NCBI GenBank assembly: GCA_963727895.1
Contig: CAVSHT010000003.1
Coordinates: 256,001 to 320,000 of the forward strand
Source of the DNA: an uncultured Methanosarcinaceae archaeon
Lineage (GTDB): Archaea > Halobacteriota > Methanosarcinia > Methanosarcinales > Methanosarcinaceae
DNA: 64,000 bases
Reading direction: 5' to 3'
The notes under the pieces were generated by a model. That model worked only from the letters and a program-made list of their open reading frames with translations, made no database searches and was not told where the DNA came from. Positions 17,225-60,020 of this stretch are shown piece after piece. How positions within the stretch are numbered: the first letter of the stretch is position 1; the number at the start of each line of letters is the position of its first letter. The translations under genes and the position numbers were made by a program.

Positions 17225-17296
17225 AGGTCTGTAGTGTAGAGGATATCACTGGAGCCTCCGGAGCTTCGAACCTGGGTTCGATTCCCAGCAGACCTG
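17225..17296 (+). tRNA. tRNA-Arg(CCG)
   Basis: Acceptor AGGTCTG/CAGACCT, D arm GTG..CAC, anticodon arm GGAGC-CT CCG GA-GCTTC, T arm CTGGG-TTCGATT-CCCAG; followed by a T-run; TTTATAA box near 17139. Confidence 0.93.
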
Positions 17297-55638: not shown

Positions 55639-56393
55639 GGCATTGTTACTCAAATATATCTAGTTCTTTATTTCTGTATTTCATCAATGGAATAACCGAG
55701 TACTTTAGCATTTCAAGACTCTTCGTATAACACTTTGTCTTTCTTCTCAACCTTGCCAAAAAGTGCCTCAATATGCTGTTATATCCCTCAACTGTAAATG
55801 TTTCTGCTTTTGATTGAGTATGAATCGTTTCTGGAAGAAACTCTGCATATGCCCTCCAGTAATCGGTCATCACTTCTCCAATCTCTTTTTTCTTCAATTT
55901 TTCCCAGAATAGTTTTCCAGTTTCCGTTCCTCTGCTACCAAAAGAGCAGTTGATGAACTTTTTCCCAACTCTATCAACAGCAATCCAGATCCAGCAATAT
56001 TTTTTTGTTACCTATGTAAGTGTGCATTTCATCTATTTCAACAATAGATATCTCATTTTCACTTTTTAGGTCCTCTAACTCCTGACCAAATTTCTTTATC
56101 CATCTTTGGACAGAAACATGACTCACCCCTAAAACTCTTCCTATTGAACGAAAGCCCAATCCTTCAAGGTAAAGTTGTAAAGCCTGTTTTTTAACAGAGG
56201 CGGAAAAAGCAGTTGATTTTAACTCTACTGTATAGTTATATCCACAATCATGGCATTTGTAGCGTTGACGCCCACCAACTATACCGTTCTTTTTGTGACT
56301 GGAACTATTGCATCTGGGGCAGTTCATGAAGAAATATACTTTCTAAGAAATATACTTTCTAATAGTATATAACTATGTTTAAGTATCAATGCC
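55639..56393 (-). mobile_element. IS1 family element, copy 3
   Basis: TIRs GGCATTGTTACTCAAA / TTTAAGTATCAATGCC; perfect 8-bp TSD TAATAAAT (55631-55638, 56394-56401); insA/insB ORFs. Confidence 0.95.
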
Positions 56394-56642
56394 TAATAAA
56401 TATCTTTATCAAATTTCAAAAAAATACAGATATTTATATTGTTTTATTCTAAAAACTCCTTTTGTTAAAAAATCGGATTCTCGTTATTTACTATATACTC
56501 TAAAAGTCCACTATACAAAGTATAAGAACTTAAAGTTCACTTTAAAGCAGTCAACTTTTAAATCTTATTTTAATATGTTCGGAAAATAAATTGGATTGAA
56601 TCTCAGTTAATGAACTGAGAGTTTTCCAATTAATAATATTTC

Positions 56643-57548
56643 TTATCCACAGTTTTCAATTCTATTGTTATTAGTGTTTACATTAGTTTCTTTTGTATTT
56701 AAGTGTACTACTGCAGGAGCAGATAAGTCATGGAAATAGTTGCCGGAAGCTTCTATATTTCTAAGAGTTCCCTGTAATTCTAAACCTGCGTATCCACCGC
56801 CAGATGTAGTACATTCATTGTTTTTCATGACTCCGTCGGTAACGGAATCGAACCGAACAGATGAATTAGTCCGGTTAATAAATTTACAATTCTTAACTGT
56901 GATGCCATTTACATGATAGGCATATACACCATCATGACCACATTTGTTTACAGTTACTGTGTCTATCACTACATTGCTGGATTGTGAAATAAGCATGGCA
57001 TCGTTACATCCGTTCTGGAACGTAACATCCTGAATTGTTAATCCATTGCAGTTTACTATAGTTGCCATGTTATAACAGGAGGTTCCAAGCCTGACACTAG
57101 AATAATAGTCGGACTGGCTGCCATCAACAGTTATGCCTTTTATTGTAACATCGCTTGCAGAACTGCCTCTGATCATAAGCATGGCTTTCTTTTCTGTAAT
57201 ACTGCTCTCACGCCCACCCCAGACTGATAGTCCTGCGGCAAGCTTAATCTTTGTACCTGAATCTCCTTCAAGGATGGTGTTGCTGCCTATCCGAAGAGAA
57301 TCGCTTATATCATATGTGAATGGGCCTTTAAGGTGGACAGTTGTGCCCGGGTTCTCTGCGGCAAATTCAAGCGCCTGGTTAATCTGGACGTCATCGGCTT
57401 TTCCATCACATTTATAGTCTCCACTTCCGTCTCCGGCAACAGTTACCACCTTTGAACTCTGTGTACTCGGGGCGCCTAACGCAGCCGGTACGGTTGTTAA
57501 AATAAGGCATGTTACCAGGAATAGGGTTCCTAGTTGTCTTTTTTGCAT
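56643..57548 (-). CDS. Secreted right-handed parallel beta-helix protein (disaggregatase-related N-terminus)
   Basis: Signal peptide MQKRQLGTLFLVTCLILTTVPAALG; VAGDGSGDYKCDGKADDVQINQAL; Asn/Gly-rich beta-helix repeats; AGGTGA RBS. Confidence 0.82.
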   Translation of the reverse strand: MQKRQLGTLFLVTCLILTTVPAALGAPSTQSSKVVTVAGDGSGDYKCDGKADDVQINQALEFAAENPGTTVHLKGPFTYDISDSLRIGSNTILEGDSGTKIKLAAGLSVWGGRESSITEKKAMLMIRGSSASDVTIKGITVDGSQSDYYSSVRLGTSCYNMATIVNCNGLTIQDVTFQNGCNDAMLISQSSNVVIDTVTVNKCGHDGVYAYHVNGITVKNCKFINRTNSSVRFDSVTDGVMKNNECTTSGGGYAGLELQGTLRNIEASGNYFHDLSAPAVVHLNTKETNVNTNNNRIENCG

Positions 57549-57599
57549 CGTATCACCTTTGGGTTGGATTTTTATAGGGATTTAAGTGAAATCAAAACA

Positions 57600-58050
57600 T
57601 ATACAGTAAGGTACTTCTTTCCCAAACATCACTCAAAATTCCATATTACGTACTCGTAATACTTACTTTTCCGAACGAATCTAATCAGGTAGGGATTTTC
57701 GAATTCTTCAATAGAATTCCCTGATCAGGTCGGCTCTATACGGATATTTAAGATTCCTATTACGTCTGCGTAATATTTTTCGAACCTATCCAATTCGGTT
57801 CTCTGCGATTTAGTGGGGCGGACACGTTGCACACAGAGTCTCCACTCTCCAATCACTTATAGGGATTAGTCACTGGAGGTGGCCGGAAACTAGAAGTTTT
57901 GGCTTCTATAAATCAAAACTTATTACTGACTACAGAATAGCATCCTTCTGGTCAATACCTTCCGTTTATTTCTCACGGCCTTTAGCCACAAGTCAACTCT
58001 CCTTTTTTAAAAAGTTTTCATTCACCATTGTTGAATTCTTGAGTTGACAT
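57600..58050 (-). ncRNA. Candidate long structured 5' leader / cis-regulatory RNA
   Basis: GC-elevated non-coding segment with at least eight stems between a TATA-like box (58068-58079, minus strand) and the beta-helix gene. Confidence 0.5.
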
Positions 58051-59027
58051 ACTTGGTTATGTGATCCTATTATAAAATATTTTTGGTATTTTACTAATTA
58101 AATTTTTGATAGTCTCTGCTGTTAAAAATTAACTCCGGTTTTTTATATAGCGGTCACGTGGAATTTTTAAAAATCTATTAAAATAATGTCATTTAACAAT
58201 ATTAAATAGTATCTTCTCATGTTTAAAAAATATTTATGTTTAAAATTAAGTGCAGTTTTCATAAAAAAGCTCTAAATTCAAAATATATTGTGATCTTAAA
58301 TAATACATTGTAGTTTTATATATTCTATTGTAGTTTTATATATTCTATTGAAATCTTATATCTACACCGTATGCCTAAAAATGTCTTTAATTGCCATGAC
58401 AATAGTAATAGAAAAAATAAACATCTGAATTTTTATCTTTTTTGCTGAGGTCCCTTGACATCATTTTGTCAGTTTGCTTTATACATTTTTTGCTAAGAAT
58501 AATTACGAAAAGTTTTTTAACTTTTTTTTGTCCAGTCCTGTATAGAAAAATCACGGAGAAGGTCTAAGCCTCTTCTAAGATCTCTGCAGATTATATTCTA
58601 CCTTCAATCTAGAAAATCCTCCGCACATTACTTTTTTCAATATAAATCTTTTGCTAGATTTTAAATGAATAATTTTCTTTAAAAAAGATTCATCTAATTC
58701 TACTGTTCTAAGCTATTATAACTTAAGATTGTGGTTGGCAATGCCAGTTTCTAAAATATATCCTGAAGGTTTATTATCTTTTTTGTATGGTTTATGCTTG
58801 CTAATAATTTAAGTACAGGGAAATACAAAAAAGATATTTTCATTAAACTTATTTTATATAACATGATTAATACAGTTAATTATATATAGACTTCTAAATA
58901 CTGTTATGTGAATTTAGTGAAGGTTTAATGATTAATATCTATTGCAATGGATATTAATTCTCATTCAAGTAAAATATATTCGGGACAAAAAAGACCCATT
59001 TATCCAATATACAGTAATTTGGAGTAA

Positions 59028-60020
<993 letters not shown>

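Follow-up and report, generated by a model that had tools for sequence, protein, structure and literature searches.

To our knowledge, few cis-regulatory RNAs have been described in archaea, and almost none of about 500 nt. In bacteria, large cis-regulatory leaders and riboswitches such as the T-box and the M-box have invariant unpaired cores, and their transcripts end early unless a signal is present; the 5′ pieces of such leaders are far more abundant than the gene. A constant region of another kind is found in the vlp and vsa genes of mycoplasmas, where promoter, leader and signal-peptide codons are near constant before divergent mature surface proteins, and where variation arises by slipped-strand or site-specific switching. 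Here, we describe a leader, or 5′ untranslated region (UTR), of about 501 nt at positions 57549-58049 (minus strand) of a 64,000-nt stretch of DNA, hereafter the window, from an uncultured Methanosarcinaceae archaeon (assembly GCA_963727895.1, contig CAVSHT010000003.1). It is non-coding and lies directly 5′ of the ATG of a gene (56643-57548, minus strand) for a secreted right-handed beta-helix protein of 301 amino acids (aa).

The closest described RNAs are two small RNA (sRNA) candidates of Methanosarcina mazei Gö1, which appear in the supplement of a published study (PMC11456600). sRNA070 occupies 1312862-1312926 on the plus strand, is 65 nt long and starts AGTCAACTC. asRNA038 (3438100-3438246, plus strand, 147 nt) starts TGTCAAGTC and is listed as antisense to the annotated open reading frame (ORF) MM_2863; both candidates are attributed there to Jäger et al. 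2009 (PMC11456600). A long 5′ UTR has also been reported for slmA1, the S-layer gene of Methanosarcina. It measures 154-159 nt, with a mapped distant start, more than 91% identity between species and predicted hairpins, and its function is described as unknown (PMC3361143).

The leader in the window is real, structured and strongly constrained, and it is transcribed in a relative, M. mazei. A regulatory function is likely, and the leader probably controls the amount of cell-matrix enzymes made. The reading we favour, with reasonable though far from complete confidence, is that 57549-58049 acts in cis as the regulatory 5′ leader of the secreted beta-helix mRNA, with its own promoter of B recognition element (BRE) and TATA box, and that it limits the transcripts reaching the gene.

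Promoter, start and family of the leader

A reading of these letters made without database searches (the sequence-only reading) had singled out 57549-58080 as a non-coding stretch richer in G+C than its flanks, with a TATA-like box on the minus strand, a predicted transcription start near 58045 and a structured leader beginning far from the ATG. All of this is supported. The stretch contains only short ORFs, the longest of 43 aa on the minus strand and 41 aa on the plus strand. G+C is 0.32-0.50 over 57550-58050, the gene-proximal third of the intergenic region, compared with 0.18-0.28 in the spacer at 58050-59000. The TATA-like box, at 58068-58079, lies inside a conserved block, CCAAAAATATTTTATAATAGGA, that is nearly invariant among 34 copies of the leader.

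In archaeal promoters, a purine-rich BRE immediately precedes an A/T-rich TATA box, which lies some 25 nt before the start. On the strength of this established architecture, which 58066-58087 (minus strand) shows, a BRE-like CCAAAAA is assigned to 58080-58086 and a TATA box, TTTATAATA, to 58068-58076, with putative binding of TBP and TFB. These elements stand 19-27 nt from the start proposed here, the centre of the TATA box being about 24 nt away. The start is placed at 58049 (minus strand), the base just 5′ of GUCAAC, because the catalogued M. mazei transcripts begin at the homologous position of two copies; it would make the leader 501 nt long. Compared by eye, all 65 nt of sRNA070 agree with the 5′ end of one copy (L031), and asRNA038 is near-identical to that of another (L052); the window's leader aligns with both copies over its full length. 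The listed starts, an A followed by GTCAAC for sRNA070 and a T followed by GTCAAG for asRNA038, fall on the base before the first hairpin. The sRNA starts of Jäger et al. 2009 reportedly come from 5′-end-enriched reads. In M. mazei the sRNA070 start lies 747 nt before the ATG of MM_1118, and the asRNA038 start 633 nt before that of MM_2864, a 298-aa orthologue of the window gene. A start near the ATG, which would have told against the sequence-only reading, is thus not what this relative shows. At the other end of the leader is a ribosome-site module, AUCCAACCCAAAGGUGAUACG (57549-57569, minus strand), with the Shine-Dalgarno (SD) sequence GGUGAU at 57552-57557, before the ATG. Besides this module, no conserved promoter-like block was seen near the ATG in the 34 copies.

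The leader belongs to a family. A second copy, 72% identical, lies on another contig of the same genome. BLAST with the whole leader matched 34 of 36 other genomes of the genus Methanosarcina, several times each, and none of 24 genomes from five other families of the order. A covariance model (R1), built from an alignment (A3) of a 127-nt core, gave 1-4 matches in each of 32 of 34 same-genus genomes and none in the 116 genomes that represented 15 other genera of the family. Some 17 records from outside Methanosarcina contain an 18-nt pattern of the leader, which is the estimated chance expectation in 596 Gb. Judged by these searches, the leader is a Methanosarcina-specific family, and paralogous leaders stand before other surface and secreted genes, as the sequence-only reading had suspected. 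A profile search of the loci yielded 114 near-full-length matches, of which 78 were distinct; removal of pairs at least 97% identical left 74 non-redundant copies (alignment A2), the set to which counts refer below unless another is named.

Among 27 full-length copies with their flanks, column identity climbs from about 0.5-0.6 to 0.86 at about 58100. It remains at 0.74-0.98 down to the ATG, compared with 0.54-0.79 in the codons of the mature protein, and is 0.89-0.98 in the core (57756-57882). With 0.82-0.98 over the leader itself, constraint is thus higher there than at the start of the coding sequence. Paralogous leaders are 70-77% identical while the mature proteins behind them are 31% identical or unrelated, and orthologous leaders are closer still, at 85-95%.

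No described RNA family matches the leader. At gathering scores, Rfam 15 matched only a tRNA at 17225 in the 64-kb window; at E up to 10, the region 57400-58200 gave three matches, all with E of at least 3.3 and far under gathering scores, and no similarity of the near-invariant core to known aptamers was found. A description of the family was likewise not found in the limited collection of papers searched. The sequence-only reading had called the RNA undescribed, which is right insofar as it has no Rfam family; the 5′ ends of two copies, however, were already catalogued as sRNA070 and asRNA038.

Fold and covariation

The minus-strand RNA has a predicted fold of −133 kcal/mol, compared with −111.5 ± 5.9 in 100 shuffled sequences, none of which folds as well (z −3.64); for the plus strand z is −2.67. 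A model of 16 helix segments (H1-H12) with 92 pairs, drawn from the window's copy, was tested on the 74 copies. Its positions pair in 89.9% of 6638 cells, as against 30-40% when partners are slid along the alignment. Both sides have changed in 38 of the 92 pairs, whereas 22.4 ± 3.1 do so in shuffles (none of 500 reaches 38). An all-against-all scan of column covariation was swamped by clade signal, unrelated column pairs scoring like true pairs, and a test of changes on the same branch of a tree was therefore used instead. It found 20 canonical-to-canonical co-changes on single branches, compared with 3.3 ± 1.9 and a maximum of 9 in 500 trials with random partners of matched change number, and with 3-8 for slid partners. 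Four of the events fall in H1, three in H4, five in H9 and its closing stem, two in H3 and the rest elsewhere. H6, H7 and H10 have none, because they scarcely vary.

The hairpins of the minus-strand RNA can be followed from its 5′ end. H1 (GUCAACUC...GAGUUGAC), the 5′-terminal hairpin at 57992-58048, has its arms at 58041-58048 and 57992-57999; both sides change in all eight pairs, 93.9% of cells are paired, and its four same-branch co-changes are canonical. H3 (57924-57957) is a hairpin UAUUGACCA...UAGUCAGUA with an inner AGGA/UUCU, followed by U-rich AAGUUUUGAUUUAU; both sides change in five of nine pairs and 91% of cells pair. The most conserved part, the 127-nt core at 57756-57882, holds H5 (CCACCUCCAGU/AUUGGAGAGUGG), H6 (CUCUGUG/CGCAGAG), a GAACC..GGUUC hairpin and H8, the first UAUUACG hairpin (57757-57776), and its unpaired stretches are invariant. 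In the H9 domain (57671-57733), CCGA/UCGG closes CUGAUCAGG/CCUGAUUAG with an inner GAAUUC/GAAUUC. Both sides of H9 change in five of nine pairs, with U-A replaced by C-G in 22 cells and A-U by G-C in 18, and the domain contributes 3 + 2 canonical same-branch co-changes. H10, UAUUACG-AGUA-CGUAAUA (57644-57661), is 94.2% paired, its departures from Watson-Crick pairing being mostly G.U; it is followed by invariant GGAAUUUUGAG, whose TTT is the same in all 74 copies.

Every stem named in the sequence-only reading is present in the window where it was placed: GTCAACTC/GAGTTGAC (57992-57999 and 58041-58048), TGAC..CAGAA/TTCTGGTCA, CTCCA/TGGAG, CTCTG/CAGAG, ATCAGG/CCTGAT around GAATTC/GAATTC, and the two TATTACG-N4-CGTAATA hairpins (57757-57776 and 57644-57661). 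The CCGT/ACGG stem was the one that failed to generalise, since as CCGU/ACGG it pairs in only 59% of cells across the 74 copies. The stem GTGGC/GCCAC (57879/57985), taken to close a multibranch domain, fared in between: it exists and is 86% paired, with a single compensatory event, and is still a possible part of the fold.

Several other pairings were considered. Long-range pairing of the SD-like GGAGGU with CCUCC (47% paired) and of AGGGA with UCCCU (57%) was rejected. RNAalifold, run on 33 and on 74 copies, recovered only some of the hairpins and added pairs between distant invariant stretches. Under ribosum scoring the two UAUUACG hairpins came out paired to one another, although a copy with a double change within H8 favours local hairpins. 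An alternative pairing AAGUUUUG/CAAAACUU is possible. Swapped arms of the two UAUUACG hairpins would pair in 94-99% of cells, UUGGAU with AUCCAA beside the SD in 93.6% and CACCU with the SD in 89.3%, each with 0-1 compensatory events, and no mutually exclusive pairing had covariation support in the 74 copies.

On the minus strand, the window's leader contains three sites of a motif, AAUCCCUA: in the H5 loop (57872-57882), in the H9 internal loop (57690-57700) and just before the ribosome site (57585-57569). Only the first of these sites is kept in nearly all copies. The motif is possibly a repeated binding site.

Transcripts, cassette and competing readings

Further information on the transcripts comes from M. 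mazei grown in ordinary laboratory cultures. By our own arithmetic on the published tables, the RNA_baseMean per nucleotide is 0.371 for asRNA038 and 0.0073 for MM_2864, a 51-fold drop, and 0.563 for sRNA070 and 0.037 for MM_1118, a 15-fold drop (PMC11456600). This fall in per-base signal along the transcript points to transcripts that mostly stop short of the gene, or to a 5′ piece that outlives the rest. The listed end of asRNA038 lies just after the homologous H3 hairpin, beside the U-rich stretch, and may correspond to termination there. In four RNA libraries from two studies, contigs extend over both leader and gene and across the ATG, which is compatible with a single transcript. The contigs stop at 57901, 57952, 57958 and 58020; 58028-58600 is uncovered and nothing is drawn from that part, and library depths were not used for ranking leader against gene. 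In the main texts of the limited literature searched, no functional study of sRNA070, asRNA038, MM_1118 or MM_2864 was found.

What has been observed is the conservation of the leader, its distribution, the covariation of its base pairs, its non-coding nature, the limits of the cassette and the catalogued starts in a relative; regulation, the step at which it acts and the signal for it are inferred. Transcription would begin at the leader's own BRE/TATA promoter, and the RNA would fold into a chain of at least 10 hairpins, the first at its very 5′ end. The leader would then co-regulate the genes of disaggregatase-related secreted proteins after transcription has started, most likely by limiting the transcripts that reach the coding region. 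RNA polymerase might terminate or pause prematurely where U-rich stretches follow hairpins, or the transcript might be processed to a stable 5′ piece. Short U runs follow H3 (AAGUUUUGAUUU) and H10 (GGAAUUUUGAG), and the invariant unpaired stretches may form a binding surface for a factor or ligand.

A number of points weigh against this reading. Most of the core is invariant and hence yields no covariation for or against the fold. Many isolated column pairs also "covary", and since the copies fall into few clades and the model comes from one copy, per-cell pairing counts overstate the support. A scan for bacterial-type terminators over 56400-58600 found no site; the sigma-70 matches from the corresponding promoter scan are irrelevant for an archaeon. 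The U runs after hairpins are only 4-5 long, and the run AAUUUUUGAA that follows H8 in most copies is missing from the window's copy. The 15-51-fold drop is a ratio of normalised counts in which overlapping reads inflate very short features, perhaps two-fold, and it could reflect only a decay-resistant 5′ piece. The listed 3′ ends, at 65 and 147 nt, may be the limits of old reads, and the RNA-library contigs cannot show strand, ends or RNA origin.

The same M. mazei data could also be taken to mean that the leader promoter makes one or more independent, trans-acting small RNAs that normally end within the first 65-150 nt, the gene being served by read-through or by a start of its own. The catalogued sRNA candidates do include pieces of two copies, 65 and 147 nt long, with 15-51 times the per-base signal of the genes and, for asRNA038, an end just past the homologous H3, beside the U-rich stretch. 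Conservation and covariation, however, extend over all 500 nt as far as the ribosome site, with a peak at +170 to +300 that lies past the listed ends of the sRNAs. The copies always have one orientation, directly before a family gene or stub ORF, and 68 of the 74 have a long family ORF downstream; besides the ribosome-site module no conserved promoter-like block was seen near the ATG, and the RNA-library contigs join leader and coding sequence. We regard this explanation as unlikely, though it is the strongest competitor of the cis-acting leader.

The arrangement downstream of the leader raises another possibility. Every copy ends in AUCCAACCCAAAGGUGAUACG-AUG, and the ORF that follows begins MLKRQLGTLFLVTCLILTTVPAALG. 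In 28 copies the long ORF comes directly after the leader; in 40, one or two stub ORFs of 16-48 aa, which resemble decayed signal peptides, and a repeated ribosome-site module intervene; the remaining six lack a long ORF because of contig ends or broken genes. The module is nearly identical ahead of every family gene and of the stubs. The long ORFs comprise a beta-helix class of about 298 aa, as in the window (40 copies), a pectate-lyase-like class continuing into Disaggr_repeat (23 copies) and five others (two with Disaggr_repeat/DNRLRE only, two with no family and one fragment). Proteins of different classes share 31% similarity, or else resemble each other only over their first 26-28 residues, where identity is 82-85%. 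Because homology between classes stops there, the conserved unit ends at the signal peptide: it is, as the alignments read, promoter, leader, ribosome site and signal peptide, set before otherwise unrelated mature domains.

The first 26 or so residues of the 301-aa protein are its signal peptide and part of this shared cassette; the remainder matches Beta_helix PF13229 at 5.7e-13, with NosD only below the cut-off, and no related solved structure was found at E up to 0.01. Its description as disaggregatase-like in the sequence-only reading is supported at the level of the family: paralogues behind the same leader carry Disaggr_repeat PF06848 at 1e-84 to 1e-87, and the window gene has the beta-helix part only, with no PF06848 match in the domain search. 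The window's copy has no stub, and its ribosome site directly serves the 301-aa gene. At the MM_1118 locus the leader runs straight into a 33-aa stub, sORF_127, which is curated as translated (PMC11456600); this indicates that the leader's ribosome site is used.

Stub ORFs stand between leader and long ORF in L038, L039, L041-L045, L048, L049, L051, L058 and other copies. Many are exactly 28 aa long (MLK[IM]KQETLFL..CLSLTAVCA[LF]GKN..), each after a copy of the ribosome-site module. That stub length is kept across species, together with the Ribo-seq call for sORF_127, raises the question of whether the stubs act as upstream ORFs rather than being scars. The second copy in the window's genome (L002, contig 9) has a 48-aa stub followed by family ORFs of 149 and 118 aa, apparently a broken pectate-lyase-like gene, and its locus adjoins a glutamyl-tRNA synthetase-like gene.

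It could be argued that such a cassette is maintained mainly by copying or exchange between paralogues, and that the long leader has no regulatory role beyond promoter and ribosome site. The homology block does stop exactly at the signal-peptide cleavage region before unrelated mature domains, and the stubs and repeated modules in 40 of the 74 copies look like recombination scars. Against this, identity between the two copies of the window's genome is just 72%, and orthologous leaders (85-95%) are closer than paralogous ones (70-77%), so that recent homogenisation has not taken place, and an invariant core with 20 compensatory events despite divergence indicates selection on the RNA. We think exchange an improbable account of the leader. 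The leader was also considered as the remnant of a mobile element, a possibility that the sequence-only reading had itself raised. It was not supported: each of the 74 copies is oriented toward a family gene or what is left of one, the window's copy keeps the same neighbour in the loci of three other species, and core copies number 1-4 per genome, although no search was made for terminal inverted repeats or target duplications.

Conservation might instead act on the DNA. Perfect palindromes of 18 bp are typical of dimeric DNA-binding proteins, and the two TATTACG-N4-CGTAATA palindromes, about 105 bp apart and nearly invariant in the 74 copies, centres included, could with other invariant stretches be transcription-factor sites that block or loop the transcribed region. 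Yet the rare single changes in their arms are mostly G.U on the sense strand, where the other strand would have A.C (H10 has nine G.U cells), and in one copy a double change keeps an H8 pair. Over the whole helix model, G.U cells outnumber A.C cells by 574 to 224, which favours folding of the sense strand, and helices that are not palindromic covary too. A purely DNA-level role therefore seems to us quite improbable, more so than exchange between paralogues.

As to coding potential, the longest stop-free stretches in the leader have a median of 73.5 codons, are mostly antisense and differ in frame between copies; no conserved reading frame was found in the 74 copies, and the leader is non-coding. 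MM_2863 (NC_003901.1:3438135-3438368, minus strand), annotated antisense inside the leader, shows hardly any ribosome signal, with a RIBO_baseMean of 1.6 (PMC11456600). It is homologous to the plus strand of the window at about 57830-58040, and its annotation is probably spurious, as the antisense stretch is open in many copies with shifting frames. That the leader might be the mRNA of a small protein, with the short ORFs as its product, is suggested by sORF_259 (19 codons) on asRNA038 and a short ORF on sRNA070, both curated as translated from Ribo-seq in M. mazei (PMC11456600), but is very improbable, given that ATG-started ORFs of at least 15 codons occur at homologous columns in only 9 of the 74 copies, frames differ between copies and the window's copy has stop codons where the M. 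mazei ORFs lie.

Several other features surround the locus. The upstream neighbour is a divergent gene for a luciferase-like monooxygenase, starting at 59034 across an intergenic region of about 1.5 kb, and it is kept at the loci of three other species. In the AT-rich spacer, some 260 nt upstream of the leader promoter and outside the conserved block, 58307-58361 consists of 2.8 tandem repeats of a 20-bp unit, ATTGTAGTTTTATATATTCT. Close behind the beta-helix gene lies a broken IS1-family element (55646-56327, minus strand), in which two short ORFs match an HTH_23-type domain (117 aa) and part of the DDE domain of an IS1 transposase (83 aa). It was not found beside the orthologous gene in any other locus examined.

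Significance and comparison with known systems

Methanosarcina aggregates are held together by a matrix, methanochondroitin, which the products of disaggregatase-family genes presumably dissolve. According to a review, disaggregatase has been characterised only in M. mazei and its regulation is unknown, and the review describes the timing of disaggregation as unknown in all species but M. mazei. It is tempting to go further than the cis-acting leader favoured above and to imagine a large genus-specific riboregulator that holds secreted matrix-remodelling enzymes off until a cue arrives, and so serves as a switch of the transition from aggregates to single cells, while leader and common signal peptide together form a portable "regulated secretion cassette" placed before new enzymes. 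We offer this joint proposal as speculation that may well prove wrong. The leader nevertheless gives a concrete handle on how Methanosarcina disaggregation is timed, in a genus where M. mazei and M. acetivorans are genetically tractable and the transcript starts of M. mazei are catalogued. New here are the use of those starts, the translated stub ORF, the boundary of the cassette at the signal peptide and the tree-based test of covariation. Two catalogued "sRNAs" and the antisense ORF MM_2863 can now be re-read as parts of an mRNA leader.

The comparison is closest with sRNA070 and asRNA038, which belong to this same family, as the 5′-terminal pieces of two copies, and start at the base before the first hairpin. 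They differ in being listed as short, separate RNAs and not as a leader of about 500 nt joined to MM_1118 and MM_2864, nor as a genus-wide family. The slmA1 UTR likewise precedes a surface-protein gene of the same genus. It has another sequence, belongs to a single gene and is a third of the length, and the portion of the report consulted mentions no paralogous family or signal-peptide cassette for it (PMC3361143).

The likeness to leaders of the T-box and M-box type lies in a long structured 5′ leader with an invariant unpaired core. Unlike these, the Methanosarcina leader has no Rfam match, known ligand or recognisable terminator/antiterminator pair, works with archaeal machinery and, at about 500 nt, is longer than most. 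With the vlp and vsa genes it shares the cassette of constant promoter, leader and signal-peptide codons before divergent mature proteins; it is far longer and structured, and no repeat or inversion site of the kind that drives switching in mycoplasmas was seen.

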